Shown: positions 3,591 through 34,563 of the stretch, piece by piece
Position numbering within the stretch: position 1 is the first letter of the stretch
Layout of the letters: every line of letters begins with the position of its first letter
NCBI RefSeq assembly: GCF_002706985.1
Contig: NZ_PAKP01000027.1
Strand: one strand, 5' to 3'
DNA: 64,000 bases
Origin: Sneathiella sp.
GTDB lineage: Bacteria; Pseudomonadota; Alphaproteobacteria; Sneathiellales; Sneathiellaceae
Translations under genes and position numbers: made by a program
The notes under the pieces: generated by a model
The model's database searches: none
Seen by the model: only the letters and a program-made list of their open reading frames with translations
Told to the model about the DNA's origin: nothing

Positions 3591-4805
3591 CTATTCCGCC
3601 GGGGAAATTGTCGGTACAGCGACCTCACGGCGGACCCGCCCCGGCAGCAGAAGAGCGGCCAGCGAGATCAAGGCGGCGACAATCGCAACAACGGCAATCA
3701 CGCCGGAGAATCCTGCGCCAGATTCCAGAATATACCGCGCCGCCAGAAGGGAGAGCGCGCCGATCACCAGATTGAGCATAAGCTTCACCGCCATGACCTT
3801 CGACCGCCAGGCGTCCGGCACATAGCGCGATATAACCGTATCGGTAATCGGGATCTGACCAAAAACAAAGGCCATCGCGAGCAAGGTCGCGAAGAACAAC
3901 GCATAATTCATCTGCGTCGCCATTATTCCGATCAGGATCGGCTGCGCGAGTGCAATAATAAAGAGCACCGGCTTGATACGGTATTTATCAATCAAACGAC
4001 CGACCACCATCTGCGCGAAGGCCGCAATCGCATATACCAGCGCCGCCAGCAGTCCCGTCGTCGCCACATCCACCGTCACGTCCGGCATGCTGACTTCGAA
4101 CATCCGCGGAATGACGAACGTCATGGTACCAAACACAAATCCGCCCGCCGATGTCACCAGCGATATGGCGAACAGTGCCCGTTTCCAGCCCGGCATGAAG
4201 CCGACGATTTCCTTTTCCCCGGCCGCATGCACCGGCGGTTTCCCGCCGCCGCGCCGGACGAAAATCATGAACCCGATGCCGATGGCAATGGCGACGGTGC
4301 CGGGAATGATGAAGGCCGCCCGCCAGTCATAATCGGCGAGAATGAACCCGGTAATCAGCGGTGCCGCCGCAACCCCCATATTCCCCCACACACCATTGAG
4401 GCCAAGGCGCCAGCCTATTCTGCCGCCCCCCTGAACAACCATGGCAATGCCGACAGGGTGATAGATGGACGCGAACAGCCCGATTGCCGCGAGACCCACG
4501 GCAATCTGTAGCGGATCCTGTGCCAGCCCGGTAGCGATCGCCGAGAGCCCGATGCCGACAAAAAAGACCACGATCATACTGTTGCGGTTCCATTTATCGG
4601 CGATATAAGCGGCAAGCGGCGCGCCCGCGCCGAACAGGACAAGCGAGGGAATGCCATAGGGGATCATCTCCGCATAGGCGCCATCTTCTGCGAGACCAAA
4701 GGAAATGCCCGCGCTAAAGGCCGCCTTGGCGAAAATCAGCATGAACAGATGGTCAACGAAATGACCGACGTTCAGGTAAGTGAATCGTAGCTGCTGACTG
4801 GTCAC
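3591..4805 (-). CDS. MFS transporter
   Basis: About 12 hydrophobic segments; IADKWNRN and GRLIDKYRIK MFS loop motifs. Confidence 0.9.
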   Translation of the reverse strand: MTSQQLRFTYLNVGHFVDHLFMLIFAKAAFSAGISFGLAEDGAYAEMIPYGIPSLVLFGAGAPLAAYIADKWNRNSMIVVFFVGIGLSAIATGLAQDPLQIAVGLAAIGLFASIYHPVGIAMVVQGGGRIGWRLGLNGVWGNMGVAAAPLITGFILADYDWRAAFIIPGTVAIAIGIGFMIFVRRGGGKPPVHAAGEKEIVGFMPGWKRALFAISLVTSAGGFVFGTMTFVIPRMFEVSMPDVTVDVATTGLLAALVYAIAAFAQMVVGRLIDKYRIKPVLFIIALAQPILIGIMATQMNYALFFATLLAMAFVFGQIPITDTVISRYVPDAWRSKVMAVKLMLNLVIGALSLLAARYILESGAGFSGVIAVVAIVAALISLAALLLPGRVRREVAVPTISPAE

Positions 4806-5129: not shown

Positions 5130-5867
5130 ATGCGTGATAATGCGACAGACGAACTGCTAGCGGAGATTGCCCGGCGCAGTCCTGCCGTTCACTGCCTGAC
5201 CAATACGGTCGTCCAGGCACTGACGGCGAATATGCTGCTGGCCGTCGGGGCCATTCCGTCCATGTCCTCCGATATTTCCGAAGTCGCCGATTTTGTCTCC
5301 GGCGCGAATGCCCTTCTGATCAATCTCGGAACACTCGACGGGGATCGTAAATCGGCAATCGAGGCCGCGATAACTGCGGCCAGAAAGAAAAATATTCCCT
5401 GGATTCTCGACCCGGTCCTGATCGACAGGGCGTCAGGGCGCCTCGCCTACGCAAAAGAGCTGATGACACGTCAACCGGCGCTTATTCGCGGAAATAGCGG
5501 GGAAATCAGCGCCCTGAACGCAGATCCACATATCCTCGCCCGGAAAACCCGCGCAATCGTCGCCGTAACCGGCGTTGAAGATCTGATCACCGACGGCCAA
5601 AGCGAAAAAACCGTCACCGGCGGTCATATGCTCATGAGCCGGGTCACCGGCATCGGCTGCGCCGGCACAGCGCTTTTGGGGGCCTGCCTTGCGGCCGCAG
5701 ATCCGTCGGCACGGCTGGAGGCCGTTGCCATCGGCCTGCGCCTTCTTGGCGACGCCGGAGAGAGAGCCGCAAACACATCGAACGGCCCCGGCAGCTTCGC
5801 CGCAGATATCCTCGATGAAGTCTACAAATCAAGCCAATCCAGCCTTCAGGAAAGGAAGGAATCATGA
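5130..5867 (+). CDS. thiM: Hydroxyethylthiazole kinase
   Basis: PAVHCLTNTVV, ANMLLAVGAIPSM, PWILDPV, IRGNSGEI and VTGIGC motifs. Confidence 0.92.
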   Translation: MRDNATDELLAEIARRSPAVHCLTNTVVQALTANMLLAVGAIPSMSSDISEVADFVSGANALLINLGTLDGDRKSAIEAAITAARKKNIPWILDPVLIDRASGRLAYAKELMTRQPALIRGNSGEISALNADPHILARKTRAIVAVTGVEDLITDGQSEKTVTGGHMLMSRVTGIGCAGTALLGACLAAADPSARLEAVAIGLRLLGDAGERAANTSNGPGSFAADILDEVYKSSQSSLQERKES

Positions 5868-6952
5868 CTGAAAAATCCCTGTCCCGACGCAAATTCATGA
5901 TGGCTTCCGGCCTCGGTGTCGCGGGGGCCGGTCTGTTCAGCACTCCGGCCATCTCAAGCGGCGCCCGGCAATGGAAGATGGTGACGTCATGGCCCAAAGG
6001 GGCCCCCGGCGTCGGCGTGACCGCGCAGCGCCTTGCCGACCGGATCACGACCATGAGCGGCGGCAAACTCACCGTTAAACTCTATGCCGCTGGTGAACTC
6101 GTGCCCGCGCTCGAGGTTTTCAGCGCCGTCGGCGGCGGCACCGCCGAGCTTGGCCATACCGCCTCCTTCTTCTGGCAGGGAAAGGCCAAGGCCAGCGTCT
6201 TCTTTACGACGGTACCCTTCGGCCTGACCGCCCTTGAACATATGGCCTGGATCAATCAGGGTGGCGGGCAGGAGCTTTGGGACAAGCTCTACCAACCCTC
6301 TGATATCAAACCATTTATGGCCGGAAATACCGGAATACAGATGGGCGGATGGTTCAAGAAGGGGCTGAACTCCCTTGATGACTTGAGGGGGGTGAAAATC
6401 CGCAGCGCCGGTCTCGGCGGCGAACTGTTCGAGGCCCTCGGCGCCACATCCGTGCTGCTCCCGCCAGGAGATATCTATCCCGGCCTGCAAAACGGCCTGA
6501 TCGACGCCGCGGAGTTTCTCGGCCCCTGGAGCGATCGTGCCTTCGGATTTTACAAGGCGGCCCCCTATTATTACTGGCCCTCCTTCAACAAGCCGAACGG
6601 CAGCGCCGAATGTCTGGTCAACCGCACCGCCTTTGAAGGGTTGAGCGATGACCTCAAGGCGGTGGTGGCCAATGCCTGTCAGTCGGAAAACGCCTTTGGC
6701 CTGTCCGAATCCGATTGGGAAAACGCCCGCGCACTGGATGACCTTATCGAAAACAAGAATGTAAAGGTTCGTCAGTTTCCGGCCGATCTTCTCGCGCGGG
6801 CCCGGGAACTCACACCTGGACTGATCGACAATTTTGTCTCCGGCGATGCCATGGCGGAGGAAATTCTGGCGTCCTACCGGACGGCGGTCTCCCTGTCGAA
6901 GAGCTGGTCCCGGGTCAGCCGCCAACCGTTTTTCGCCGCAAGGGATGCCTAG
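5864..6952 (+). CDS. TRAP transporter substrate-binding protein (DctP/TakP-like) with Tat signal
   Basis: SRRKF Tat motif, WKMVTSWP, GVKIRSAG and DAAEFLGPWSD; ATGA overlap with thiM. Confidence 0.9.
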   Translation: MTEKSLSRRKFMMASGLGVAGAGLFSTPAISSGARQWKMVTSWPKGAPGVGVTAQRLADRITTMSGGKLTVKLYAAGELVPALEVFSAVGGGTAELGHTASFFWQGKAKASVFFTTVPFGLTALEHMAWINQGGGQELWDKLYQPSDIKPFMAGNTGIQMGGWFKKGLNSLDDLRGVKIRSAGLGGELFEALGATSVLLPPGDIYPGLQNGLIDAAEFLGPWSDRAFGFYKAAPYYYWPSFNKPNGSAECLVNRTAFEGLSDDLKAVVANACQSENAFGLSESDWENARALDDLIENKNVKVRQFPADLLARARELTPGLIDNFVSGDAMAEEILASYRTAVSLSKSWSRVSRQPFFAARDA

Positions 6953-7137: not shown

Positions 7138-7980
7138 ATGTCCCTTCAGAACGGCCTGATTATCCTGGGTATCCTGATCGCTCTGGCCGCCATCGCGGGA
7201 TATGCAGGGCTGACCTATTTTTACGGCTCCATATACGATTTCGATCAGTCTAGGGACGGACCGGAAAAATACGGACATGATGACGTAAAGGAAGTCACCT
7301 TTACCGCTGAAGACGGATCAACCATATCCGCCTGGATCAGGCCGCCAGAGGGCGATGCGCCGGTTATTCTATATTTCATGGGGAATTTCACATCGATCGG
7401 ACCATCAATGTTCCGCCTGAAACCCTTTCTCGATGAAGGCCTCGGCCTTGCTGCGCTGGTCTATCGGGGGTCGAGCGGCAAAGGCGGCATTCCGTCCGAA
7501 GAGAGTTTCGCCGCCGACGCCCGCGCCCTGTATGATCAGCTGGACAGCCTGATGGGACAAGAAATCCCGCCAGAACAACGGCTTGCCCATGGTTACAGCC
7601 TGGGAACCGGGATTGCGGTTCGTCTCGCAACGGAACGGAAAATTGCCGCTCTCACGCTGGAGGCCGCATATGCGCGGTTTTGCGACTATTTCACGAACCG
7701 ATACTACGGCCTGCCGTTCTGCATGATCATGACGACAGAAAGATATGATTCCATCGACCGGATAGCGGATATAAATGCCCCCCTCCTGATGCTGCACGGG
7801 GAAAAGGACGCGTCCATCCCCATTAGTTCCGGCAGAACGCTGTTCGCCGCCGCGCAGGAGCCGAAGGAATTCAAAGCCTATCCGGACGGAGACCATGTCA
7901 ATCTCAATAAACTCGGCATTGTCGAAGACAGTCTGGCGTTCTATCAGACCCATATGCCCGGAAGCTGGGTCAACGAGTAA
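7138..7980 (+). CDS. Alpha/beta hydrolase with N-terminal membrane anchor (BEM46/ABHD13-like)
   Basis: HGYSLGTG nucleophile elbow, LMLHGEKDASIP and GDH; 3' end overlaps the PKS 3' end. Confidence 0.85.
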   Translation: MSLQNGLIILGILIALAAIAGYAGLTYFYGSIYDFDQSRDGPEKYGHDDVKEVTFTAEDGSTISAWIRPPEGDAPVILYFMGNFTSIGPSMFRLKPFLDEGLGLAALVYRGSSGKGGIPSEESFAADARALYDQLDSLMGQEIPPEQRLAHGYSLGTGIAVRLATERKIAALTLEAAYARFCDYFTNRYYGLPFCMIMTTERYDSIDRIADINAPLLMLHGEKDASIPISSGRTLFAAAQEPKEFKAYPDGDHVNLNKLGIVEDSLAFYQTHMPGSWVNE

Positions 7981-10900
7981 GCAGCAGCTCGTTCAGGATT
8001 TTCCCGATTTCCCCGATTGTCGGATCGATCATCATATTGAAATGGTCGCAATCGAAGGTCATGACCTCGATATTCCCGGAGACGAACTTGTCCCATCCGA
8101 GCTGTGGTCCGGCCCGCAGGAACTCCACACTGGCCTGACGGCCCTTGAACAACAGAACATCAGCGGGATAGTCCGGTGGATGATACTGATGTTCGGCCGC
8201 CAGATAGGCCTGCGTCATGCGCTGGCCAACCAGTTCATCGGGAATATGCTCACCTTTTGCGAGATGCGCCTCAATTTGCTGCATTTCGCGGCCCGCCGAC
8301 AGGCTCCGCCATTTTCGAAGCGGCCATTTGAGGGCGAACGTCAGGCTCCAGTGACGGGCCATCCATATTTTCCCGAGAATGCCGAGTGGCTCGCCGTCAA
8401 TTTCCGGCGCCAGGGTATCGAACAGGACAAGATAGCCGACCTCATGCCCGGTATTGCGAAGCTGATGCGCCATCTCGAAAGCGATCACGCCGCCGCCTGA
8501 ATATCCTGCCAGATGATAGGGCCCTTCGGGCTGCTGTTTGAGAATGGCTGCGACATAGCAGGCCGCCATTTCCTCAATTGTTTCATGTATTTCCGTCCCG
8601 CCATCGGAGCCGAGCGCGCGCAAGGCGTAAAATGGCAGTTTCGAATCGAGATATCCGGACAGCGAGCGGAAGTTAAGCACATTGCCGCCCGCCCCATGAA
8701 CAAGATACAGAGGCTTAACCGCCGGATCACCGGGTTTGATGCGCACAAGCGGCGACCATTCCCCATCCACGGACACATTGTCGGCGGGCGCTGTATCGAC
8801 CACGGACGTCACCACCAGATTACCCTTGGTGATAACGACATCCGACAGGAGGCGCAGGGTCGGTGCCTGGAACAGGGTGGCAAGCGGCAGGTCCGTTCCG
8901 TATTCTTTTCGGATTTTGGCGAACAAGCGCACCGCCGCCAGAGAATGACCTCCAAGATCGAAGAAATCCGCGTCCGGTTCCGGCTGGCCGACGCCCAGAA
9001 GGTCTGACCAGAACTCCGCCATCTTCTCTTCGATACTGTTTGCGTAATTGCCGCTGGATGCACCGCCGTCCTTGTCGGGACGTTCCGCCTTTTTCTTGCG
9101 CTGAACCCCGATACGGGCCATTTCCCGGCTGATATCGGACATGGAAGTCGGCGAAATCACCATCGAACGCGCATCGGACTCCAGCATGCGGCTGAAAACA
9201 GCCGGAGCGTCCCGTGCCCCTATGCCTTGCGCAATCATGATATCGACCAGCTGTTCAGGCGCCGAATCAAGATCAAATGTCGTTCCTTCAACCCGGCTGA
9301 GCGCGAACCCTTCCATTACCATCAGGGGATTGTTCTTTTCATCCAGGAACAGCACGTCAAAGCTGGCAAACCGGCCCGGCGTTTCAGCAACCATCCGGGC
9401 GCGGGTAATAAAACGCTGTGGCAGAGGCGCGAAAATGCGAATGCGGTCGACGGACATCGGCGCATAAAACGCGCCTTCCTTGCCGACATCCGACAAAAGG
9501 TTGAGCCCGATCGTCGCCGCCGTATCCGTAAGTCCCGGATGCGCCGCGTAAGTCTCCAGATCCGGGACAAATGTATCCGCAAGGGCGAAATTGCCCTCGA
9601 CTTCGCCGTCGCCAAGGCGGATCTCGCCGACATTGTCCCAGCGCGGACCGAAATCGATCAGTTCGGCTTGCGAATCCTGGCCGCTGTTATCCGAAACCGA
9701 CAACGCCGACACCATTTGCAGGGCGCGCGGGATCTTGCGGTCATTCAACCGCTTGAAGACAAGCCGGGCGCGGCAATGCTCGGTCATCGGCCCCTCGGGC
9801 GTGAGGGCGCTTTGCACCTGGAACTCATAGCCCTGCTCAATTGGCGTCAGCGTAATGGTAACGCGGGCGCGCACCCCTTCCGGAAACACCATCGGGCTCA
9901 GAAGCGACAGGGACTGTAACTCCCATTTCCGGTTTGATGCCGCGGCCAGCATGGCGGCGCGGGCAATCTCGATATACGCCGTTCCCGGCAGCACCGGAAT
10001 GCCCCCGACCACATGCTCGCTCAGCACCCAGAGCTCAGCCGGATCATAATAGGAGGTAAAGGAAATGACACCGCTGTCATCCTTTTCAAGCGGCCCGAGA
10101 AGCGGATGAACGCCTTCCGCGCTCTCTTCCATCGTGCGATAGGCGCGCGCCGCCATGCCGATATCGCGCCAGACGCCCCATGAAATTGCCAGACCGTCGG
10201 CGCGGGAGGCGGCCAGAGACTCAAGATAACTGTTCGCGGCCACATAATCGACCTGACCCGGCGGTGCCGTCACCACGGAGGTGGATGAGAAGACGGTAAA
10301 AAAGTCGAGGCTTCCCTCGGGCAGCAGGGCCGCAAGGTTTCCGCCGCCCGTTACCTTTGCCGACAGCACACGATGCGTATCGTCGAGGCTTTTGCCGAGC
10401 ATCGGGGCATCATCCATAATCCCGGCGCCATGGAACACACCATCAATGCCGCCAAACTGCGTCTTAACCTCATCAAGCGCAGAAGCGAGCATGGTTTTAT
10501 CGGTGACATCTGCGCTGAGCATGAGGACTTTTCCACCTGCTTCCTCAATCTCCCGGATCGCGTTAATGGAGCCCGCAACGGAAGACGCGGGCGTGGATTT
10601 CAGGATAGTGTCCCATTCGTCCCGCGCCGGAAACGCGGAACGACCGATCAGGGCAAGCTGTGCCTTTGCTGTACCGCCTAGATAGCGGGCAAGGGCGAGT
10701 CCTATGCCGCCAATACCCCCCGTAATCACATAGCGTCCGCCTTCCTTGATCCGTTTCGGAAGCGCCGTCGGCGCAGTCACAGAAAGCGGCGCCAGTTTCT
10801 GGGCATAGCGTTTTCGGCCCCGGAGGGCGATGCAGTCATCTGATGTGCCCCCGTCATGCTCATCCAGGATTGCTTTTCCCGACCATGCCGGATCTTCCTT

Positions 10901-13900
10901 TGCCTCAAGATCGATATATTGCGCCATCAATCCGGAAATTTCCCGCGGCGCAACCCGCACCGGACCGAGCAATGTGCCGAGTGACGGATAGGAGACCGGC
11001 TCTCCCGCAACGGAAAAACCACCGCTTCCGACAAAGCTCAGGCGAACATCCTCCGTCGGATCGGCGGACTGAATGGCCCGCGCGAGACAGAAGGCGCTGT
11101 CAAACAACCCCTTTTGTCCGTCCGCGGCGGAGGCCATGGGCCAGCAATGGAGGATATTGGCCGGCACTTCCTTGAACTCCGCAAGAAGGGCATCGTAATC
11201 CTCGGCAACATCGGGGGCGAGACGGTAGTCATCTCCCTCGCGAACAAAGCCGTCCCCGGGCCGGACGAGCGCGACCTTCTCACGCCGCGCTTCAAGCGCC
11301 GTCACCAGCGCATCGGAAACGGGATCGCCGCCATGGAACAGAAGCCAGCTGCCGCCATGTTTCGGCTCTGCCGGTGGAACCGGCGCAAGGTCCCAGCGTT
11401 TCGTAACGTACCAGTCGTCGGGATTTTCCTTCCGGGTAAGCTGGATGGCGGTTTCTTCCGGCGCATCCCCGGTCTCCGACTGGCGGCCGGTGCCCGGCTC
11501 GATCCAGTGGCGATCCTTGGCAAAGGCATAGGTCGGCAGGGACACGCGGCGCCCACCTGTCCCCGGCAGTCTGTCCCAATCCAGCGCGCCGCCGACGGCC
11601 CAGATGTTTCCAGCGGCGACAAGCGCCAGCGCCATATCGTCATCGGCCTCTTTCGGTGGACGGCCGGAGGAAATCACGGCTAGCGGTTCATTCTCGCCCG
11701 GGTTCATTTCGGCAAGCGGACCGAGCGTATGTCCGGGACCGACTTCCAGAAGAATCTGATCCGGTTTTTTCAGGACGGTTTCCACCGTATCGGCGAAGCG
11801 GACCGTATGGCGCAAGTGGCGCACCCAGTAATCGATGGTGGAAAAGTCCCCGTCCTGTCCCCAGTCACCGCGCAGGCTGGATACGAAGGGAATCTCCGGT
11901 GATTTCAGGCTGATGCCGTCAATGCCGCTCCGGAAGTTTTCCAGCTGATCATCGAGAATACGGCTATGGGCGGCAACATTGATGCGCACCCGCGTTGCCT
12001 CGAACTCCGTGTCTTTCAGCTGTATTTCCAGCGCGTCAATTTTCGCAACCTCACCGGAGACAACGCAGAGATCCGGTGCATTCAGAGCCGCGATATCAAG
12101 GGCCTCTCCAACGAGCTCTTTTACCTTGGTATGCGGCGCAGGGATAATTGTCATTGCTCCGGCCGCGGCCGCATCCATGACTTTTCCGCGCCAGACGACG
12201 ACTTTCAGGGCATCGGCGACCGACATCACCCGGGCGATCACCGCCGCCGCATATTCCCCGGCGCTATGGCCAAGGACAGCGGCGGGCTCTACACCAAAGC
12301 TCATGAACATCATTGCATAGGCATATTCCAGAATGAAGAGCGCCGGAATGGCATAGCCGGACATTTCCATGCTGGCGCGCGCCTTTTCATCATCCGAAGA
12401 CCGTTCGAACATGACCGTGCGCAAATCGGAGGGCGCATCGGCAGGCATCTGCGCAAAGCATTCATCCACTGCCGAGCGAAACGCATCTGACGTTTCCAGC
12501 AGTCCGGCACCCGCGCCCGGATATTGCGCGCCGCCGCCCGGGAACATGAAGACGACCTCCGCCTTGCCGGTTCCGGTCTTGCCGCCGGCAACCCGGCTCG
12601 GCGCTTCATTCCAGAGAGCCTTCGACAAATCGTCCTTTTCCCTGGCGACGATCACGCGGCGCTCGGCGAACTCGCGGCGTCCATGACGCAGGGTGAAGGC
12701 CGCATCCGCCAAGGACGGCATGTCATCGGAGGACACGAAGTCCCGCCATTTTTCCTGTATACCATCGAGCGCCGCCGTCGTGCGGGCCGAGAAGGGAAAC
12801 AGACGCCAGCAGCTTTCGGAAACAATCTCGGGACGAAGCGGCGCTTCCTCGACAATGGCATGGGCGTTCGTTCCGCCCACCCCGAGGGAATTGATCCCGG
12901 CCCGGCGCGGAACATCCCTGCGCGGCCAGGGCCTGCTCTCGTTCACCACATAGAACGGGCTGTTCGCGATATCGAAACGGCTGTTCGGTGTTTTATAGTT
13001 GAGGGAGGCCGGAATGACGTCATGACGCAAGGCCTCCACGACCTTGATCAGGCTGGTCGCACCGGCGGCCGTATCGAGATGACCGACATTGCTTTTGACC
13101 GACCCGATTCCGCAAAAGCCTGTGCCGCCCGCGCCATAGACCTGCGACAGGCCCGCAAGTTCAATCGGATCGCCGACCGGCGTGCCGGTGCCATGGGCCT
13201 CAATATAGCTGACGGTCTCCGCCGGGACATCGGCAATGGCGAGGGCTTCCGCCGCCGCCTCGGCCTGACCATCGACACTTGGCGCGAGATAGCCCGCTTT
13301 TTGCGCTCCGTCGTTGTTGATGGCGGAGCCGATCAACACCGCCTTGATATCATCACCATCTGCAAGCGCATCTTCCAGACGCCGGAGGACGACTAGGGCC
13401 GCACCGGAGCCGAACACCGTTCCCTCGCTGTCATTATCGAAGGGTCGGCAGATGCCATCCGGTGACTGGATTTCCCCTTCCGCGAACTTATAGCCATGAC
13501 GGTGCGGCAGCTCGACGGTGACCCCGCCGGCAATGGCCATGTCGCATTCCATGGAAAGCAGGCTGGCGGCCGCCTGATGAACGGCCACAAGCGAGGTGGA
13601 GCAGGCCGTCTGGACCGCCACGGAGGGGCCCTGCAAATTCAGGATGTAGGACAGACGCGTTGTCAGGAAGTCCTTGTCATTGCCGGTATGGCGCAGCAGG
13701 AACAGGCCGATTTCCTCGACAAGGTCCGGATTACTAAGCAGGTTGTAGGGCAGATAGGCCTGCATGCCGGAGCCTGCGAAAACGCCGATGCGCCCGTCGA
13801 AATTCTCCGGCATATGACCGGCATCCTCGAAGGCTTCCCAGGCGCATTCAAGAAAATGGCGATGCTGCGGATCAAGGATGGATGCCTCACGCGGGGAAAA

Positions 13901-14155
13901 GCCGAAAAATCCGGCGTCGAAACATTCCATATCGGAGAGATAATTGGCGGCCCTTACATAGTTGGGATCGGCCAGATCCTTGGCGCTGACCCCGTTTTCC
14001 AGCATTTCCTCGGCGCTGAACCAGCGCGTGCCCATCCGCTCGTTCGCCAGCAAATTCCAGAACTGTGCGACGTTACGCGCCGACGGAAACCGCCCGGCCA
14101 TACCAACAATGGCAATCTTTTCAGATGCCTGAATTCCCTCAACATTGTCTGTCAT
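7970..14155 (-). CDS. Type I polyketide synthase, KS-AT-KR-DH-ACP-TE
   Basis: KS QTACSTS / EAHGTGT / NVGHL; AT GHSAGE; KR GGIGGIG, MDD and DY; DH HVVGGIPVLP; ACP DLGGHSL; TE GYSGG and a C-terminal DH. Confidence 0.95.
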   Translation of the reverse strand: MTDNVEGIQASEKIAIVGMAGRFPSARNVAQFWNLLANERMGTRWFSAEEMLENGVSAKDLADPNYVRAANYLSDMECFDAGFFGFSPREASILDPQHRHFLECAWEAFEDAGHMPENFDGRIGVFAGSGMQAYLPYNLLSNPDLVEEIGLFLLRHTGNDKDFLTTRLSYILNLQGPSVAVQTACSTSLVAVHQAAASLLSMECDMAIAGGVTVELPHRHGYKFAEGEIQSPDGICRPFDNDSEGTVFGSGAALVVLRRLEDALADGDDIKAVLIGSAINNDGAQKAGYLAPSVDGQAEAAAEALAIADVPAETVSYIEAHGTGTPVGDPIELAGLSQVYGAGGTGFCGIGSVKSNVGHLDTAAGATSLIKVVEALRHDVIPASLNYKTPNSRFDIANSPFYVVNESRPWPRRDVPRRAGINSLGVGGTNAHAIVEEAPLRPEIVSESCWRLFPFSARTTAALDGIQEKWRDFVSSDDMPSLADAAFTLRHGRREFAERRVIVAREKDDLSKALWNEAPSRVAGGKTGTGKAEVVFMFPGGGAQYPGAGAGLLETSDAFRSAVDECFAQMPADAPSDLRTVMFERSSDDEKARASMEMSGYAIPALFILEYAYAMMFMSFGVEPAAVLGHSAGEYAAAVIARVMSVADALKVVVWRGKVMDAAAAGAMTIIPAPHTKVKELVGEALDIAALNAPDLCVVSGEVAKIDALEIQLKDTEFEATRVRINVAAHSRILDDQLENFRSGIDGISLKSPEIPFVSSLRGDWGQDGDFSTIDYWVRHLRHTVRFADTVETVLKKPDQILLEVGPGHTLGPLAEMNPGENEPLAVISSGRPPKEADDDMALALVAAGNIWAVGGALDWDRLPGTGGRRVSLPTYAFAKDRHWIEPGTGRQSETGDAPEETAIQLTRKENPDDWYVTKRWDLAPVPPAEPKHGGSWLLFHGGDPVSDALVTALEARREKVALVRPGDGFVREGDDYRLAPDVAEDYDALLAEFKEVPANILHCWPMASAADGQKGLFDSAFCLARAIQSADPTEDVRLSFVGSGGFSVAGEPVSYPSLGTLLGPVRVAPREISGLMAQYIDLEAKEDPAWSGKAILDEHDGGTSDDCIALRGRKRYAQKLAPLSVTAPTALPKRIKEGGRYVITGGIGGIGLALARYLGGTAKAQLALIGRSAFPARDEWDTILKSTPASSVAGSINAIREIEEAGGKVLMLSADVTDKTMLASALDEVKTQFGGIDGVFHGAGIMDDAPMLGKSLDDTHRVLSAKVTGGGNLAALLPEGSLDFFTVFSSTSVVTAPPGQVDYVAANSYLESLAASRADGLAISWGVWRDIGMAARAYRTMEESAEGVHPLLGPLEKDDSGVISFTSYYDPAELWVLSEHVVGGIPVLPGTAYIEIARAAMLAAASNRKWELQSLSLLSPMVFPEGVRARVTITLTPIEQGYEFQVQSALTPEGPMTEHCRARLVFKRLNDRKIPRALQMVSALSVSDNSGQDSQAELIDFGPRWDNVGEIRLGDGEVEGNFALADTFVPDLETYAAHPGLTDTAATIGLNLLSDVGKEGAFYAPMSVDRIRIFAPLPQRFITRARMVAETPGRFASFDVLFLDEKNNPLMVMEGFALSRVEGTTFDLDSAPEQLVDIMIAQGIGARDAPAVFSRMLESDARSMVISPTSMSDISREMARIGVQRKKKAERPDKDGGASSGNYANSIEEKMAEFWSDLLGVGQPEPDADFFDLGGHSLAAVRLFAKIRKEYGTDLPLATLFQAPTLRLLSDVVITKGNLVVTSVVDTAPADNVSVDGEWSPLVRIKPGDPAVKPLYLVHGAGGNVLNFRSLSGYLDSKLPFYALRALGSDGGTEIHETIEEMAACYVAAILKQQPEGPYHLAGYSGGGVIAFEMAHQLRNTGHEVGYLVLFDTLAPEIDGEPLGILGKIWMARHWSLTFALKWPLRKWRSLSAGREMQQIEAHLAKGEHIPDELVGQRMTQAYLAAEHQYHPPDYPADVLLFKGRQASVEFLRAGPQLGWDKFVSGNIEVMTFDCDHFNMMIDPTIGEIGKILNELLLTR

Positions 14156-14227
14156 ATTCTAGTTCATCCCCGTCGGATCTGACGGTTTTAATAAAATGAC
14201 AGAATGCCATCCTGCCAAAATTCTTTC

Positions 14228-17200
14228 CTACTGTACAGATGTCCCTGTTCTTTGGGTCATCCGTGCCCGGCGCGCCGCCGCCCGCTGAGCGCCGCGCATC
14301 GCCGCTGTCGATTCTCCCTCCGCCTTGCCGCCGCCATCTAGATGCCGCGCTAGCGCCTGAATGGTCGAAAAGCGGAACATGTCGGTAATCGCCACTTCCT
14401 TGTCGAACAGCTCCTTCAGGCGCCGCTGTACCTGAACCACCAGCAGGGAATGACCGCCGAGATCGAAGAAGTTATCGGTCACCCCGACTTCACCGAGCCC
14501 GAGCGCCTCGCACCAGATTTTGGCAATGGCGGCTTCGGTGTCGCTCTGCGCGGCCTCCGTCGAGGCGCTGGCCTGCGCCTGCGGCTTGGGCAGGGCCTTG
14601 CGGTCGATCTTGCCGTTCGGCGTCTGCGGCATCACATCCAGCATGATCACCTGTGACGGTGTCATGAATTCCGGCAGCATGGTGCCAAGTTTCTTGCGAA
14701 CCTCCTGCGGATCGATCCGTTTTCCGGGCGCAACCGTCGCAAAGGCAACCAGCCGTTTGTCGCTATCGCCGGTTTCAAACACGGTTACCGCCGCGTCCTT
14801 CACCTCATCGAGTGATCCAAGCTTGGCTTCAATCTCGCCAAGCTCGATCCGGTGGCCGCGCACCTTGACCTGATTATCCATCCGGCCATGGAATTCGAGG
14901 CGACCATCGGGCATATGCCGCACCAGATCGCCCGTCCGGTAGAACCGGCCTTCGCTTGTATCGAGGAAGCGCTGCGCCGTCAGTTCCTCACGGTTCCAAT
15001 AGCCTTTCGCGACGCCGTCGCCACCAATCCAGAGTTCCCCCGCAACGCCACTTGGCAGCGCCTGCCCGTATTCATTGCGAACCGAATAGACCGTATTGGC
15101 CATTGCCTCCCCAAGCGGGATGGTCTCGCCAATCGTTTGAAGATTGGCAACCGAGGACCAGACGGCCGTTTCCGTCGTGCCATACATATTGAGCAACGTT
15201 CCCTTGAGGTGGGAGCGCAGGTTCCGGGCAAGATCCGGCGGGAACCCTTCGCCGCCGACCATCATGACATCCAGCTTGCCGAGCGCCGTCCGGCCGGCCT
15301 GTTCCGCCACCAGGAAGGACGCCATGGACGGCGTGCACTGGAAATGGGTGATGTCATGCTCGGCGATCTGCTCGGCGACGGAAGCCTGACGCGCCACGCC
15401 GCCTTCCGCCAACAGATTGTTTTTAAGCTCATTGATATAGGTGAGATGCTTCAGCACCAGATCCGTATCGACGCCGAAGTCGATCAGGCAGCCGATTTCA
15501 TCAACCCCCATGCGGGCAATCTCCCGCACCAGTTCCTGACAGCTGTCCGGGGTGCCGAACAGACCGCTTGTCTGGTAATATCGCTCGAACGCATGATCGA
15601 GCAGGGCATCCGTCTCTTCTTCGGTGAGTTCCTGCTTTTCAAATACTTCCTGCGGCGTCAGGCCGGTTGCATCGGCTTTCTGCTTGAAGGTCGGCGAACT
15701 CCAGGACGCGCGGCGCAACAAATCGACCGAGCTTTTGAGATAGCCCTTCATCGGTTCGCGCACCGCTTCACGCACCTGCTCCTCATCCTCGCCGACGAAG
15801 GTATGCAGCATCAGCGTGACCTTGCCCGCGCCGGGATGCCCGGCCTCACGCCAGGCCATGCGGTAGGCACGGATTTTCTCGGCCACATCCTCGAACTTCT
15901 GACCGAGCAGATGGGTAAGCACATAACAGCCCTTTTCCGCCGCCGCCGCGAAGGTTTCCGGGTTCCCCGCCGCCGTCAGCCAGAGCGGAATGTCTCCGCG
16001 CACGGGTTGCTGCAGGGTCGATACCTCGATCTCCTCACCCTTGTGATTGGGGAAAGAGACACTCTCGCCCCGCCACAATTTTCGCAGCATGTCGATGCCA
16101 TCCAGCATGACATCCTTTCGGTTGTCGAAATTATCCGGCTGCAGCACGAAGTCATTCGGCTGCCAGCCGCTGGCAATTGCGATACCGGCGCGCCCGCCTG
16201 AGATATTATCGACAAGCGCCCAGTCCTCCGCCACGCGGATGGGATGATGCAGCGGCAGAACGCAGGAACCCGCCCGGATATCGATATTCTTGGTCATGGA
16301 AGCGACCGCCGCGGAACTCACCGCCGGATTGGGGTAAAGGCCGCCAAAGGCATGAAAATGCCGCTCCGGCGTCCAGACCGCCTCAAATCCGTTCTCATCG
16401 GCGAATTTCGACCCCTGCAGCAGCAGACGATAGGCTTCGGGGCCGCTGCCCGCCACTTCGGAGGCAAAATAGAACAGGCTGAATCCCGGAACCGGGGTTG
16501 AGGAAACGCCATCCGTCTGCAGCACCACCGTATAGCCACGCGCCAGCGTCCAGAAAATTTCCAGAACCGAGATGTCGAAAGACACCGACGTAATCGCCAG
16601 CAGGCGCACCTCGCCATCATGCGGAACCGTCAGATCGGTCCCGGTGAAGAAGTTGACGATATTCTGATGGGTGAGCATAACCCCCTTCGGAATACCGGTC
16701 GAGCCGGAGGTATACATCAGATAGGCAAGATCGGAAGGATCGCCGTCGGGAAGGGCCGTCTCGCCACCTGTTGCGTCCGGATAAACAATCTTTTTCGGGT
16801 CCAGGCGGAATTTGAACTCCGTCTTCTGGCTGGCGACGATCAGCGGGGTCGTGCTGTCCTCAATCATGAAGGCAACCCGCTCCACCGGATAGGAGGGATC
16901 AAGCGGCAGATAGGCGGCGCCCGTCTTCAGGATGGCCAGCAGGGACACCACCAGATCGGTCGATCGTTCCAGGCAGAGCCCGACAACGCTTCCCCGCCCG
17001 GCACCGCGCTCAATGAGGGCCGCGGCGAGGGCATCCGTGCGCCGGTCAAGCTCGGCATATGTCAGTACATCGCCATCGGCTTTGAGGGCGGTCGCCTCTG
17101 GTGTCTTTCGGGCCTGCTCTCGGATGACCTCATGAATGCGTTTATCGCGCGGATAGGCAACACCCATATGATCCATGCCGATCTGCTCTTCGCCCGGATC

Positions 17201-18745
17201 GGTGAGCGGTAGCGTCTTGAGCGCCGCATCCCTGTTTGCCGTGAAGGCATTGATGAAAAAGGCGATGTCGCGCCCCATCGCCGTCAGCATATCCCGGGCA
17301 TACAGCCCGGTGCGCGCGATCAGGCGCGGCGACGAACCGAAGGCAAGCACCAGATTGCGGTCCTGCAAAAGCTCCTGATCGCTGCCGTCTTTCGCCGTAA
17401 CCGCCGTCGAAAGAGCGCGCAAGGCAAGGTCCCGCACCGCCAGATCCGGTATCCGGGCGATAAGATCGACAGTTCTCGGCCCTGCTTTCTCGCCTTCGGC
17501 CTTGATGTTCCGGTAGGCGTTAATCGTTGCGCGAACGCTGTCATCACCATTCACGGGCAGGGTGACAAGCTGGGTATCGGCGATCAGCGGATGCGCTGGT
17601 CCCGTAATATCCGTGCCGCAAGAGACCGTCTTCGCCCCCATGAGGAGGGAATGCCAGACCAGAAACGCCGCCGTCGCATCATCCGCGTCGATGGTCCCGC
17701 TGACGGGCACCGGCGCCGTGACGGCACCGGACGCCATATCCCGGTTAGACGGATAGGGTGATTGCGGCGGCATGGCCCCCGCGAGCGTCTCCTGCCAGTA
17801 AAGCTCGGCCCCCGCCGCGGCATTCAGAAGATCGTCGGAAATATCGGTAAGCGGCGGGATTGCCGTTCCGGCCTGAAGGCCAAGTGCATTGGGGTGCCGT
17901 GGCTCGCCTGCGAGACAGCGAAACGCCCCGAGGATGACATCATGATCCTGCGCAGCAATCCGGACAGTATCGTTATCAACGGAAACAACCTGCCCCGGCG
18001 CGGCACTGGCGGGCGCGTCCGCGATTTTTAGGGTTCCGACAAGGGATATTCCGCGGCCCGTCCATAGCTTTGCCGCGCCGAGCGGGTTGGTATAGGCCCC
18101 GAAATCCAGCGCGCGGACCAGCCGGTCCAGCTCTCGGGCCGGTTTCGTGAAATCGAGCGCGCCGAGCTTTTCAGGGCGCATGACCGCATCATAGCGGTTC
18201 CGCTCAGCTCCCTGCTCCTGCGGCTGAACAGTGTTGTTCTTAAGCTCCTGCACCAGTTCGGTGAAGGAAGCGAGCCCGGCCTCATAACATTTCGCGTTCA
18301 GGCTCATGGAGGTTTCATCTGCGGCCACGGGCACGGTACGGGATTTCAGGATCCGGCCGGCATCCGGCGTGTCCTTCATTTCATGCCAGGTAACGGCATG
18401 CTCCGTCTCCCCGTTCATCAGCGCCCAGGACGTGACATTGATCCCGCAATATCTCGGCAACGGTCCGTCGAAGAAGTTGATGGCGAATTTTGCAGGCTGA
18501 ACCGGCAGGTGCTGCGGGAAGATGGTCAGGTTGACGATGCTGAAAAGATAATCGAAGGCAAGGCCGTTCAGCGTTTCATCATCCGGCGCATCGAAAAGCG
18601 GCAGTTTTTCCGCTTCTGCCCAGGCACGAACCCGCGGCTCATGGCTCAAAATACCGGTAATCTCACCGCCTGCGCGCCGGAACTCCTCGGCGCATTGAAC
18701 AAGGAGGGTTCCCTCACCAACGAATAGCCCGTTCATCACAAACAC
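14228..18745 (-). CDS. NRPS-like loading protein: formyltransferase - partial C - A domain interrupted by a luciferase-like monooxygenase - PCP
   Basis: Formyltransferase-like N-terminus; A3 YTSGSTGIPKG, A4 FDISV; LLM insert (FSLFYFASE...WTPERHFH, ~15420-16483); A5 YGTTE, A7 YRTGDL, A8 GRMDNQVKVRGHRIELGEIE, A10 NGKIDRKAL; PCP DLGGHSL. Confidence 0.93.
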   Translation of the reverse strand: MFVMNGLFVGEGTLLVQCAEEFRRAGGEITGILSHEPRVRAWAEAEKLPLFDAPDDETLNGLAFDYLFSIVNLTIFPQHLPVQPAKFAINFFDGPLPRYCGINVTSWALMNGETEHAVTWHEMKDTPDAGRILKSRTVPVAADETSMSLNAKCYEAGLASFTELVQELKNNTVQPQEQGAERNRYDAVMRPEKLGALDFTKPARELDRLVRALDFGAYTNPLGAAKLWTGRGISLVGTLKIADAPASAAPGQVVSVDNDTVRIAAQDHDVILGAFRCLAGEPRHPNALGLQAGTAIPPLTDISDDLLNAAAGAELYWQETLAGAMPPQSPYPSNRDMASGAVTAPVPVSGTIDADDATAAFLVWHSLLMGAKTVSCGTDITGPAHPLIADTQLVTLPVNGDDSVRATINAYRNIKAEGEKAGPRTVDLIARIPDLAVRDLALRALSTAVTAKDGSDQELLQDRNLVLAFGSSPRLIARTGLYARDMLTAMGRDIAFFINAFTANRDAALKTLPLTDPGEEQIGMDHMGVAYPRDKRIHEVIREQARKTPEATALKADGDVLTYAELDRRTDALAAALIERGAGRGSVVGLCLERSTDLVVSLLAILKTGAAYLPLDPSYPVERVAFMIEDSTTPLIVASQKTEFKFRLDPKKIVYPDATGGETALPDGDPSDLAYLMYTSGSTGIPKGVMLTHQNIVNFFTGTDLTVPHDGEVRLLAITSVSFDISVLEIFWTLARGYTVVLQTDGVSSTPVPGFSLFYFASEVAGSGPEAYRLLLQGSKFADENGFEAVWTPERHFHAFGGLYPNPAVSSAAVASMTKNIDIRAGSCVLPLHHPIRVAEDWALVDNISGGRAGIAIASGWQPNDFVLQPDNFDNRKDVMLDGIDMLRKLWRGESVSFPNHKGEEIEVSTLQQPVRGDIPLWLTAAGNPETFAAAAEKGCYVLTHLLGQKFEDVAEKIRAYRMAWREAGHPGAGKVTLMLHTFVGEDEEQVREAVREPMKGYLKSSVDLLRRASWSSPTFKQKADATGLTPQEVFEKQELTEEETDALLDHAFERYYQTSGLFGTPDSCQELVREIARMGVDEIGCLIDFGVDTDLVLKHLTYINELKNNLLAEGGVARQASVAEQIAEHDITHFQCTPSMASFLVAEQAGRTALGKLDVMMVGGEGFPPDLARNLRSHLKGTLLNMYGTTETAVWSSVANLQTIGETIPLGEAMANTVYSVRNEYGQALPSGVAGELWIGGDGVAKGYWNREELTAQRFLDTSEGRFYRTGDLVRHMPDGRLEFHGRMDNQVKVRGHRIELGEIEAKLGSLDEVKDAAVTVFETGDSDKRLVAFATVAPGKRIDPQEVRKKLGTMLPEFMTPSQVIMLDVMPQTPNGKIDRKALPKPQAQASASTEAAQSDTEAAIAKIWCEALGLGEVGVTDNFFDLGGHSLLVVQVQRRLKELFDKEVAITDMFRFSTIQALARHLDGGGKAEGESTAAMRGAQRAAARRARMTQRTGTSVQ

Positions 18746-18859
18746 ATAGGTCCTTCAGCCATTATTGTTTTTCTTAAAATGTTCTGTTTTTACGCACCAT
18801 AGAAATAACCTGTTTATTAACCCTTAATGAGGGGCAAAAATTTCTTTTGCAAAAGGACG

Positions 18860-19495
18860 TTAGTTGCTGCGTGGAATATCCGAGACATATTTCGGAATGT
18901 GATAGCCCTTCTGCACCGCGGGACGATCCGCAATCCGATGATACCAACTCTTTACGTTCGGATATTGTTCCAAATCAATTGTCTGCCACTCAAACCGGGA
19001 AATCCAGGGCCAGATTGCGATATCGGCAATGCTGTAGTCGCCGGCGACGAACGCCCGGTCCGAAAGGGCGGCATCCAGCACGCCGTAAAGCCGTTTCGCC
19101 TCGTTAAGGTATCTCTCCTCGGCATAGGGCGCCTTACCCTGATTGAAGCGCACGAAATGATGGACCTGGCCGCACATGGGGCCGAGACCGCCCATCTGCC
19201 ACATCAGCCATTCCATCATCTGCCAGTAGGCTTTCTCTTCCGTCGGGACCAGCTTGCCGCCTGCCTTCTTCGACAGATACAGCATGATCGCGCCGGATTC
19301 CATCATCCGGATGCCTGTATCGGTATCGACAATCGCCGGAATCCGGCCGTTCGGCGAAATCTCTACAAATTCCGCAGATTTCTGGTCTCCCGCCGTAATA
19401 TCGATGGGATGGACACGATAGTCGAGACCCAGCTCTTCCAGCAGGATCGAGACCTTGCGGCCGTTGGGTGTTCCCCAGGTATAGAATTCAATCAT
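18860..19495 (-). CDS. Glutathione S-transferase family (YfcG/YghU-like)
   Basis: TPNGRKVSILLEEL, SPNGRIPAIVD and MESGAIMLYL motifs. Confidence 0.92.
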   Translation of the reverse strand: MIEFYTWGTPNGRKVSILLEELGLDYRVHPIDITAGDQKSAEFVEISPNGRIPAIVDTDTGIRMMESGAIMLYLSKKAGGKLVPTEEKAYWQMMEWLMWQMGGLGPMCGQVHHFVRFNQGKAPYAEERYLNEAKRLYGVLDAALSDRAFVAGDYSIADIAIWPWISRFEWQTIDLEQYPNVKSWYHRIADRPAVQKGYHIPKYVSDIPRSN

Positions 19496-19516
19496 TGTTC
19501 CTCCTCTTGTATACGG

Positions 19517-21205
19517 TCAGGCTTTCGCCTTCTCGCCCTGCGCCCGCATGCCGGATAAACTCTGCTCCGGCGTCAGTGCCTCCGCATCCACGACCAGTTC
19601 GATCACCGCCGCCGTCCCGCAGGCCTGGGCCGCAGTAAAAACCTCCGCAAACTCATCCGTACTCTCCACACGCTCGCCAAAGGCCCCGTAGGCCCGGGCA
19701 AGCGCCGGAAAATCCGGATTTGAAAGCCCTGTCGCATGCACCCGCGACGGATATTCCCTCTCCTGATGCATACGGATAGTACCGAGCATGCCGTTATTCA
19801 CAATGATGAAGATCACATTTGCATTAAACTGCATGGCCGTTGCCAGTTCCTGACCCAGCATCATGAAACAGCCATCGCCGTTAAAGCTGACAACCGTACG
19901 GTTCGGCTCCGTCAGCTTGGCGCTGATCGCCGCCGGAACGCTGTAGCCCATGGCGCCGCTGGTGGGCGCGAGCTGGGTGCGGTACTTCTTGTGCTGGAAG
20001 AAACGATGGGCCCAGACGGCATAATTGCCCGCCCCGGCGGTGATAATCGCATCCTCGGGCAGCGTCTCGTTCAGGTAAGCGACGATCTTTCCAAGGTTGA
20101 CCGGACCCGGCACCTCCGTCGGCTTGATCCGCGCCAGATAGTCGGCGCGGGCGTTCATAACCCAGCCTTCGCGCGCCTTTACGCCCCCTGGCGCCATGGC
20201 GCGGGCCGCGGCGGCAAATTCGGGCATACGCGCATTGATCGCGATATCCGGAAGATAGACGCGGCCAAGCTCGGAAACACCCGGATGGACATGCACAAGC
20301 GTCATGGACGGGTTCGGAACGTCTACCAATGTATAACCCTGCGTCGTCATTTCGCCAAGGCGCGGCCCGACGACCATCAGCAAATCGCTCTCCTTTATCC
20401 GGGCGGCCAGCTTGGGATTGATGGCAATCCCCACATCCCCGGCATAGTTGGGATGACGGTTGTCGAAGCAGTCCTGCGAGCGGAGCGAGGCACCGACGGG
20501 AATGCCGTGGCTTTCGGCAAAGGCCTGTATGTCATCCACCGCGGCCTGGCTCCAGGTGGAACCGCCGACAATCATGAACGGGCGTTCCGCAACAGCAAGC
20601 TGCGCCTCCAGCGCCATCATGTCCGCCGCGGCGGGCGCAATGCTGTGCGCGATTGCCGGATGGGCGATATCGGCAATGTCCGCCATATCGGTCAGCATAT
20701 CCTCGGGCAGCGCCAGCACAACCGGACCCGGACGGCCGGAAAGCGCGGTATGAAAGGCGCGGCTGACATATTCGGGAATCCGGCGCACGTCATCGATCTC
20801 GGCCACCCATTTGGCCATTTCACCGAACATCCGGCGATAGTCGATCTCCTGAAAGGCTTCACGGTCCAGCGCATCCCGCCCGACTTGACCGACGAACAGG
20901 ATCATCGGCGTGCTGTCCTGAAACGCGGTATGCAGGCCGATGGACGCATTCGTCGCGCCGGGTCCCCGCGTCACCATGCAGATGCCGGGCCGCCCGGTCA
21001 GTTTGCCGTAAGCCTCCGCCATGTTGGAGGCCCCGCCTTCATGCCGTGTGTTGATCATACGGATGCTGTTTGCGTAGCTGTAAAGCCCGTCGATGACCGC
21101 AAGATAGCTCTCGCCGGGGACACAGAAAACCGTGTCCACTCCCTGTAACGCCAGCTGATCCGCCAGTATTTGTCCGCCTGCCCTGGTTTGAAGCGTTTCC
21201 GCCAT
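19517..21205 (-). CDS. ThDP-dependent enzyme, acetolactate synthase large subunit-like
   Basis: VPGESYL, RHEGGAS and the GDG...NN ThDP motif (GDGCFMM...IVNNG). Confidence 0.9.
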   Translation of the reverse strand: MAETLQTRAGGQILADQLALQGVDTVFCVPGESYLAVIDGLYSYANSIRMINTRHEGGASNMAEAYGKLTGRPGICMVTRGPGATNASIGLHTAFQDSTPMILFVGQVGRDALDREAFQEIDYRRMFGEMAKWVAEIDDVRRIPEYVSRAFHTALSGRPGPVVLALPEDMLTDMADIADIAHPAIAHSIAPAAADMMALEAQLAVAERPFMIVGGSTWSQAAVDDIQAFAESHGIPVGASLRSQDCFDNRHPNYAGDVGIAINPKLAARIKESDLLMVVGPRLGEMTTQGYTLVDVPNPSMTLVHVHPGVSELGRVYLPDIAINARMPEFAAAARAMAPGGVKAREGWVMNARADYLARIKPTEVPGPVNLGKIVAYLNETLPEDAIITAGAGNYAVWAHRFFQHKKYRTQLAPTSGAMGYSVPAAISAKLTEPNRTVVSFNGDGCFMMLGQELATAMQFNANVIFIIVNNGMLGTIRMHQEREYPSRVHATGLSNPDFPALARAYGAFGERVESTDEFAEVFTAAQACGTAAVIELVVDAEALTPEQSLSGMRAQGEKAKA

Positions 21206-22892: not shown

Positions 22893-22896
22893 CAGC

Positions 22897-34557: not shown

Positions 34558-34563
34558 AAATTC

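Follow-up and report, generated by a model that had tools for sequence, protein, structure and literature searches.

A glycine-type NRPS split by a flavin monooxygenase and its single reducing PKS partner in Sneathiella: a minimal form of a widespread orphan cassette

A 64,000-nt stretch of contig NZ_PAKP01000027.1 from Sneathiella sp. (assembly GCF_002706985.1), hereafter the window, carries a compact cassette of three genes encoding a nonribosomal peptide synthetase (NRPS), a polyketide synthase (PKS) and a membrane-anchored alpha/beta hydrolase. The initial annotation of this DNA had described an adenylation (A) domain of glycine type, split by a flavin monooxygenase and feeding one reducing PKS module; this observation was confirmed in nearly every detail, and its interpretation is supported. 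The domain content and order of the two synthases, their motifs, their conservation and their membership of a broad family are direct observations, and the locus is real and does not closely match any characterised cluster. We consider it somewhat more probable than its alternatives taken together (about 55%) that the three genes form a functional unit that loads glycine, hydroxylates it at the alpha carbon, extends it once with malonate, reduces and dehydrates the resulting chain and releases it by a thioesterase (TE), and that this unit belongs to a widespread family whose product is orphan.

The NRPS gene (positions 14228–18745 on the minus strand, 1505 amino acids as listed) is located upstream of the co-directional PKS gene (7970–14155, minus strand, 2061 amino acids), with 72 nt between the NRPS stop codon and the PKS start. 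The hydrolase gene lies on the opposite strand and overlaps the 3' end of the PKS gene by 11 nt. The coordinates and open reading frames (ORFs) first reported for these genes proved accurate. The annotated GTG start of the NRPS makes the protein 3 residues too long, and the 1502-residue homologues all start at the ATG at 18736. The G+C content of the cassette region (0.57–0.61) is the same as that of the flanks. The closest protein matches are to Sneathiella proteins, and the cassette is kept in at least seven lineages of this genus at 72–92% identity. A megablast search of the 12 kb region against a plasmid collection returned only short matches to generic PKS and NRPS sequences; the cassette therefore has no close DNA relative in that collection.

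According to Pfam and NCBIfam, the NRPS consists of a formyltransferase-like domain, the C-terminal half of a condensation (C) domain, an A domain split by a luciferase-like monooxygenase (LLM) dependent on flavin mononucleotide (FMN), and a peptidyl carrier protein (PCP) domain (Table 1). It has no TE and represents a starter module followed by the PKS. The LLM matches the TIGR04020 (MupA/Atu3671) model over its full length (residues 755–1108), with a score of 498.8 bits against a cut-off of 244.45, and the best solved structure is that of PuwE (PDB 6ket, E 3.1e-108). Its insertion between motifs A4 and A5, as proposed in the initial annotation, agrees both with the domain boundaries and with the motifs themselves: A4 (FDISV) occupies residues 723–727 and A5 (NMYGTTE) residues 1186–1192.

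The ten specificity residues of the A domain, D-I-L-Q-M-G-M-V-W-K, were read from the sequence identically in both analyses, and the likeness to a glycine code noted earlier is substantial. Eight of the ten residues are identical to DILQLGMIWK, the code common to all four known glycine-activating A domains with a monooxygenase (MOX) insertion (PMC12283262), and both replacements, L to M and I to V, are conservative. Moreover, the code D-I-L-Q-[ML]-G-M-[IV]-W-K is near-invariant over about 70 relatives from many phyla. Glycine is thus the predicted substrate of this domain.

The closest parallels are MtaG and MelG of the myxothiazol and melithiazol pathways, which likewise have an A domain of glycine type, an LLM at a4–a5 and a near-identical code. 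In MtaG/MelG, the monooxygenase domain located between a4 and a5 acts on glycine (PMC10204066), and LLM domains of the TIGR04020 type have been assigned hydroxylation alpha to the carrier-bound thioester, SolF giving alpha-hydroxyglycine and PuwE the hydroxyl group at position 2 of a beta-amino acyl chain (PMC10204066, PMC4219810). By analogy, the LLM in the window would hydroxylate the carbon alpha to the PCP thioester, and alpha-hydroxylation of PCP-bound glycine is the chemistry predicted here. The architectures differ: MtaG/MelG are terminal C-A(MOx)-PCP-TE modules that oxidise peptidyl-glycine, the chain leaving as an amide, whereas the module in the window is a starter without a functional C domain, is headed by a formyltransferase-like domain and passes its unit to a PKS. 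SolF (solanimycin) and PuwE (puwainaphycin) share the LLM family and the assigned alpha-hydroxylation of carrier-bound thioesters; they differ from the window in that the SolF domain belongs to an elongation module, where it is inserted between a8 and a9, and the LLM of PuwE is a separate domain between the PKS and NRPS parts that acts on a fatty acyl chain.

The segment between the formyltransferase-like and A domains gave no Pfam match at residues 300–525, even at E 10. A profile of residues 275–545 built from 10 family members matched only the C-lobe of condensation domains (McyB residues 199–482, E 3.7e-19; also Txo1 and LgrA), and in one relative (P0089) positions 189–336 of Pfam Condensation were matched. 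Since only the C-lobe is recognised, and the N-lobe and the HHxxxDG motif are absent, the term "C-domain remnant" used earlier is correct. Together with the PF00551/PF02911 matches, this profile supports the view that the NRPS is a starter module whose N-terminus resembles a formyltransferase and whose C domain is reduced to a remnant.

In the formyltransferase-like domain, Pfam recognised Formyl_trans_N at residues 73–158 and Formyl_trans_C at residues 195–272. The best PDB match is the formyltransferase domain of ArnA (E 1.6e-15), Fmt and sugar N-formyltransferases were also found, and the F domain of LgrA was absent among the PDB matches. Comparison with ArnA revealed that Asn90 and Asp128 of the catalytic triad are kept, while the position of the catalytic His is occupied by Phe92 (N90-F91-F92-D93). 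The motif N-[FY]-H-D occurs without exception in about 60 loci of other genera, and N-[FY]-F-D in both sampled Sneathiella loci and six further Sneathiella proteins (8/8). Thus, the fold proposed in the initial annotation was confirmed, but the catalytic His is replaced by Phe in this genus, and formylation is therefore not to be assumed there. Judging from this substitution, canonical formyl transfer in Sneathiella is doubtful; the domain has probably lost its formylating activity and, like the condensation remnant, would act chiefly as a scaffold. Within Sneathiella it is as conserved as the A domain (78% identity versus 76–82% between the proteins P0001 and P0015), and therefore it must have been retained for some purpose.

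A formyltransferase fold fused to a starter A-PCP unit is also found in LgrA (F-A-PCP) and in the loaders of N-formylglycine for mycalolide, oxazolomycin and conglobatin, and in these polyketide cases glycine is likewise the starter. The window differs from the formylating loaders in its ArnA/Fmt-like domain, the C-lobe remnant ahead of the A domain and the lack of the catalytic His. To our knowledge, no formylating loader has been reported to carry an LLM.

The PKS contains, in this order, a ketosynthase (KS, residues 12–435), an acyltransferase (AT, 535–807), a ketoreductase (KR, 913–1331), a dehydratase (DH, 1350–1624), a carrier (1712–1773) and a TE (1815–2043), as delimited by Pfam and NCBIfam; the domain searches agree with the single reducing module described before. 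The Cys-His-His residues of the KS, GHSxG of the AT, Tyr of the KR, His and Asp of the DH, and the active Ser of the carrier and the TE were all read in the window and are conserved in 12 aligned relatives. The specificity motif of the AT is [IV]AAH family-wide, as compared with HAFH in unrelated PKSs of the same sample. The module differs from the canonical reducing module with an AT in cis (KS-AT-DH-KR and an acyl carrier protein, ACP) in the order KS-AT-KR-DH-carrier and in the PCP-type GGHSL motif of its carrier.

The best solved relative of the KS-AT region is 8xju/8xjy (E 5e-207), a PKS for which a structure of the complex with a peptide synthetase is available as well (8xjz); from the neighbouring accession numbers and the chain lengths we suspect that these entries represent colibactin ClbI/ClbH. 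The KS-AT is nearest to those of modular synthases and hybrid interfaces (8xju, DEBS, CurL, ClbK), with iterative synthases scoring lower, and the best PDB matches of the DH are the modular dehydratases of CurF, CurK and PksJ. Because the KS and DH are of modular type, a single pass is most likely, and a C4 product, essentially as predicted in the initial annotation, would be reasonable.

The hydrolase has a hydrophobic helix at its N-terminus and a GYSLG motif, as expected for the membrane-anchored enzyme described initially, and database searches found only generic matches to it. A convergent hydrolase gene directly after the PKS gene is also present in the nearest Sneathiella metagenome-assembled genome (MAG; locus L005), in S. 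marina (L085) and in Rhizobium sp. ARZ01 (L003/L004). The S. marina hydrolase shares 60% identity with that of the window, and the flanks of the two loci differ, comprising in S. marina flagellar genes together with genes for a C1 peptidase and an RHS protein. That the hydrolase is kept beside the synthases across genomic contexts speaks for its being part of the unit, as the third conserved gene in the clade of Sneathiella and Rhizobium sp. ARZ01.

Several observations bear on whether the cassette is functional. The NRPS and PKS ORFs are intact, and of their catalytic motifs only the formyltransferase His is missing. A close relative, 95–99% alike, is represented in two public sequencing runs (X6 and X7); third codon positions account for 32 of its 40 best-supported differences (p = 2e-9), which indicates purifying selection. 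In one marine poly-A metatranscriptome run, 8–9 short contigs matched parts of the hydrolase, PKS and NRPS genes; they are indistinguishable from DNA carry-over and give a weak hint of transcription.

The family extends far beyond this genus. A scan using one genome per species, with 80 loci kept for analysis of genomic context, identified more than 597 relatives of the NRPS, with members in, among others, Rhodobacteraceae, Comamonadaceae, Sphingobium, Cellvibrionaceae, Chloroflexi, Salinivenus, Planctomycetes, Acidobacteria, Myxococcota, Actinomycetota and cyanobacteria. The same PKS, KS-AT-KR-DH-carrier-TE, adjoins the NRPS in about 55 of the 80 loci. The NRPS precedes the PKS in most lineages other than Rhodobacteraceae; in Rhodobacteraceae and a few others (e.g., a Hydrogenophaga MAG) the order is PKS, a family 2 glycosyltransferase (GT2), NRPS and an Sfp-type phosphopantetheinyl transferase (PPTase). 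The initial annotation had mentioned similar MupA/Atu3671-type loci in alphaproteobacteria; the assignment of the LLM to TIGR04020 holds, but the family occurs across many phyla and had already been noted in roseobacters.

All domains were matched by tblastn in loci of Leisingera, Shimia, Roseovarius, Paracoccus and other genera. Relative to the roseobacter cluster, the NRPS of the window is homologous, with 35–53% identity by domain and the same domain order, and the PKS is homologous as well, with about 60% identity in the KS; the differences are the order NRPS–PKS, the lack of GT2 and PPTase genes, the convergent membrane hydrolase found instead, and the loss of the formyltransferase His. 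The Rhodobacteraceae cassette lies among further glycosyltransferase genes, a Wzx-type flippase and a ParA/kinase-like (chain-length/kinase-like) gene.

A conserved NRPS/PKS cluster of roseobacters was reportedly noted by Martens et al. in 2007. Subsequently, a four-gene cluster was described in 28 of 57 roseobacter genomes, its product not being characterised (PMC4337385), and its order was given as PKS, glycosyl transferase, NRPS and PPTase, with an unidentified product (PMC5014874). A 2023 survey covering 37 related species found that, of the unknown clusters, an NRPS-like/type I PKS (T1PKS) hybrid with genes of 4,527 and 6,333 nt occurred most often (PMC10584327). The gene content of the Rhodobacteraceae locus L011 in our sample agrees with the published description of the roseobacter cluster. 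None of these three publications, which date from 2015, 2016 and 2023, assigns a product, in line with the earlier statement that no product is known, and literature searches for the combination of formyltransferase, LLM, A domain and PKS, or for formyl NRPS-T1PKS clusters in Rhodobacteraceae, found nothing. The Sneathiella locus is not unique; it is a minimal, formyltransferase-altered and hydrolase-linked form of a very common orphan cassette known from roseobacters.

In other lineages the genomic surroundings are of different kinds. In an Agarilytica MAG (L086), exosortase EpsH/EpsI, GNVR and tetratricopeptide repeat (TPR) genes precede the NRPS, a GT2 gene is nearby, and a gene for a 163-residue flavin reductase (21288–21779) directly follows the PKS; locus L018 is similar. 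The flavin reductase and exosortase genes fit a LLM dependent on reduced FMN (FMNH2) and a role linked to exopolysaccharide (EPS) in that lineage. Dolichospermum (L002) and Aulosira (L010) have the NRPS without a type I PKS; there it is part of a cluster of glycosyltransferase genes that also encodes a discrete ACP, a KASIII, a short-chain dehydrogenase/reductase (SDR), an acyl ligase, a PglD-like transferase and a DegT aminotransferase. This cyanobacterial set may represent the same pathway in dissociated form, supplying an amino sugar.

The following sequence of reactions can be proposed for the Sneathiella cassette, because TIGR04020-type LLMs have been assigned alpha-hydroxylation and the LLM of the window matches PuwE; the substrate, the site of oxidation, the number of PKS cycles and the product are predicted by analogy. 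The A domain would load glycine on the PCP, as its specificity code suggests, and the embedded LLM would hydroxylate the carbon alpha to the thioester, the reaction assigned to MtaG/MelG, SolF and PuwE. Elsewhere in the family, the formyltransferase domain with the intact Asn-His-Asp set presumably N-formylates the glycyl unit, which would turn hydroxyglycine into a more stable carbinolamide. In Sneathiella there is no catalytic His; therefore, a free alpha-hydroxyglycyl thioester would tend to lose ammonia, giving a glyoxylyl unit. The KS could take either the (hydroxy)glycyl unit or the glyoxylyl unit derived from it and condense it with a malonyl-type extender, after which the B-type KR and the DH would produce an (E)-2-enoyl thioester on the PCP-like carrier. 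The TE would then free a C4 product of the 4-amino-4-hydroxybut-2-enoate or 4-oxobut-2-enoate type, or a lactam, lactone or other cyclised form of it, and the membrane-anchored hydrolase may act on this product or its conjugate at the membrane.

A number of points weigh against this proposal. A free alpha-hydroxyglycyl thioester would be unstable, and therefore the timing of the oxidation is uncertain; residual or altered catalysis by the Sneathiella formyltransferase-like domain is also possible. The AT motif VAAH is neither HAFH nor YASH and provides no standard extender signature. The KR precedes the DH, unlike in canonical modules, and iteration is therefore possible. A tblastn search of the whole 64 kb window found no homologue of the PPTase and glycosyltransferase genes located beside the cassette elsewhere, extending the initial remark that neither is adjacent, and the window also contains no homologue of the flavin reductase. 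Finally, evidence of expression is sparse, and no product of any family member is reported in the three publications cited above.

Of the alternatives, one retains the same enzyme chemistry and supposes that the glycine-derived acyl unit is handed to a glycan or lipid of the cell envelope, the membrane hydrolase processing the conjugate. The contexts described above speak for this idea: the PKS, GT2, NRPS and PPTase genes of Rhodobacteraceae are placed among glycosyltransferases and a Wzx-type flippase, the Agarilytica cassette adjoins EpsH/EpsI, GNVR and GT2 genes, and the cyanobacterial NRPS is surrounded by glycosyltransferase genes as well as those for a PglD-like transferase and a DegT aminotransferase. 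In addition, the formyltransferase-like domain is nearest to ArnA and sugar N-formyltransferases rather than to the F domain of LgrA. However, neither the flanks of the cassette in the window nor the S. marina locus contains a glycosyltransferase or polysaccharide gene, and the PKS ends in a standard TE of hydrolytic type, so that for Sneathiella we regard transfer to the envelope as rather unlikely. Iterative action of the PKS module, leading to a longer amino- or oxo-polyene acid instead of a C4 compound, appears improbable. The order KR-then-DH without an enoylreductase (ER) resembles iterative synthases of the enediyne and polyunsaturated fatty acid (PUFA) type more than textbook cis-AT modules, and the AT motif is unusual, but the affinities of the KS-AT and the DH are modular, as described above, and the carrier and TE are NRPS-like.

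The LLM and the formyltransferase-like domain could also perform other chemistry on glycine, for example the formation of a hadacidin-like N-formyl-N-hydroxy (hydroxamate) head that is then extended. Formyl-hydroxamate units of siderophores are made on this principle, by an oxygenase paired with a formyltransferase, and the two domains are conserved together in about 60 loci; against this, hydroxylation alpha to a thioester is the characterised or assigned reaction of the TIGR04020-type domains of MtaG/MelG, SolF and PuwE, and Sneathiella lacks the formyltransferase His, so we give the hydroxamate route little credence. A silent or decaying locus is very improbable, even though the 64 kb contain no PPTase homologue, the formyltransferase His is changed to Phe and RNA evidence is scant: both giant ORFs are intact, the cassette persists in the Sneathiella lineages mentioned above, variants are biased towards third codon positions, and a PPTase can act in trans.

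Table 1. Domains and genes of the Sneathiella cassette with their positions in the window.
Feature	Residues	Position (strand)	Basis
NRPS: formyltransferase-like domain, N and C subdomains, ArnA/Fmt-like	1–280	17906..18745 (-)	PF00551/PF02911
NRPS: remnant of condensation domain (C-lobe and C-A linker), without N-lobe and HHxxxDG	281–540	17126..17905 (-)	Family profile
NRPS: A domain, N-terminal part through A4 (SFDISVLE; code D, I, L)	541–750	16496..17125 (-)	PF00501, residues 542–745
NRPS: luciferase-like FMN-dependent monooxygenase between A4 and A5	754–1109	15419..16486 (-)	TIGR04020
NRPS: A domain, C-terminal part (code Q, M, G, M, V, W, K; A5 NMYGTTE)	1115–1390	14576..15403 (-)	AMP-binding resumes, residues 1120–1386
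NRPS: peptidyl carrier domain (FFDLGGHSL)	1400–1475	14321..14548 (-)	PF00550, residues 1406–1469
PKS: ketosynthase, Cys (TACSTS) and both His motifs	12–437	12845..14122 (-)	Pfam and motifs
PKS: acyltransferase, GHSAGE, specificity motif VAAH	535–815	11711..12553 (-)	Pfam and motifs
PKS: ketoreductase (structural and catalytic halves), Tyr, I-M-D-D (LDD-like, B-type)	913–1335	10151..11419 (-)	Pfam/NCBIfam and motifs
PKS: dehydratase after KR, HxxxGxxxxP His and HPxLxD Asp	1345–1630	9266..10123 (-)	PF21089/PF14765
PKS: carrier, PCP-type (FFDLGGHSL)	1705–1780	8816..9043 (-)	Pfam and motif
PKS: thioesterase GYSGGG, NRPS/EntF-like	1812–2061	7973..8722 (-)	PF00975; EntF region match
Alpha/beta hydrolase, 280 residues, N-terminal transmembrane helix, GYSLG, Asp and His		7138..7980 (+)	Sequence motifs

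Some relatives of the NRPS display additional architectures. In P0089, P0094, P0097 and locus L062 (8393–14293), the A domain is interrupted twice, by the LLM at a4–a5 and by a methyltransferase near the C-terminus, and in L062 the twice-interrupted NRPS is followed by the same PKS. P0099 and P0102 have a complete extra C domain ahead of the formyltransferase-like domain. In the Rhodobacteraceae locus L011, three genes (17441–18427, 18424–20961 and 2987–4453) encode Pfam-negative proteins of 328, 845 and 488 amino acids, respectively, which are found beside the cluster in 13–21 loci.

Promoter and terminator scans of the cassette region detected sites no more commonly than in shuffled sequence. 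A 9-pair hairpin followed by a T-run is present at 14197–14217 (minus strand), in the spacer between the NRPS and PKS genes; such sites were no commoner than in the shuffles. Two co-directional genes upstream of the cassette, encoding a glutathione S-transferase (GST, 18860–19495) and a thiamine pyrophosphate (TPP) enzyme (19517–21205), were considered as cluster members. They belong to generic families, and only the nearest Sneathiella MAG has them as well, whereas the cassettes of S. marina and Rhizobium sp. ARZ01 have no such neighbours; their membership was therefore rejected. A link to thiamine was suggested by the ThiM gene and a binding-protein gene of a tripartite ATP-independent periplasmic (TRAP) transporter located near the cassette both in the window (5130–6952) and in Rhizobium sp. 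ARZ01 (L003, 4105–9067). This is probably a coincidence, since the genes lie on opposite sides, the cassette is inverted and the DctP genes have no tblastn homology.

Further away from the cassette, just upstream of the TPP-enzyme gene, the window contains a ZnuABC-type zinc uptake system (21310–24463) comprising an ABC-3 permease and an ATPase on the minus strand and a divergent ZnuA gene. A 19.1 kb integrative element occupies positions 34550–53714 and has a G+C content of 0.47–0.55, versus about 0.58 around it. Direct repeats of 69 nt (34550–34618 and 53646–53714), 88% identical to each other, bound it and are a duplication of the 3' portion of the tRNA-Ala(GGC) gene located at 53660–53735; its cargo includes a tyrosine integrase (34706–35941), a Toprim/DnaB-type primase-helicase (38807–40498) and a UmuC/ImpB-family polymerase (42549–43844).

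What is new here is the breadth of the family across phyla, the His-to-Phe substitution and the hydrolase linkage in Sneathiella, and the placement of the cassette in polysaccharide loci of other lineages; the value of the finding lies in this breadth, in the near-invariant active sites and in the orphan product. The Sneathiella form is minimal, with three genes, no glycan genes and a natural substitution in the formyltransferase active site, and is therefore convenient for heterologous expression and for dissecting each of the unusual domains.

One could speculate, and we rate this idea as unlikely, that formyltransferase-A(LLM)-PCP together with KS-AT-KR-DH-carrier-TE represents an ancient pan-bacterial pathway, in which an alpha-oxidised, glycine-derived C4 acyl unit decorates or primes exopolysaccharides or glycolipids in most lineages, and that in the Sneathiella branch the pathway was separated from the glycan genes, formylation disappeared and a membrane hydrolase was acquired. 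If so, the family would stand for a hitherto undescribed class of assembly-line glycan modification, and the Sneathiella branch would make a different compound, possibly a reactive one such as a 4-oxo-2-enoate or a hydroxypyrrolinone. That cassettes of other lineages lie repeatedly in polysaccharide loci suggests a role at the cell surface. Since the A-domain code and the oxygenase are almost invariant across phyla, the cassette family would therefore direct the synthesis of one conserved, probably simple molecule by very many marine and soil bacteria.

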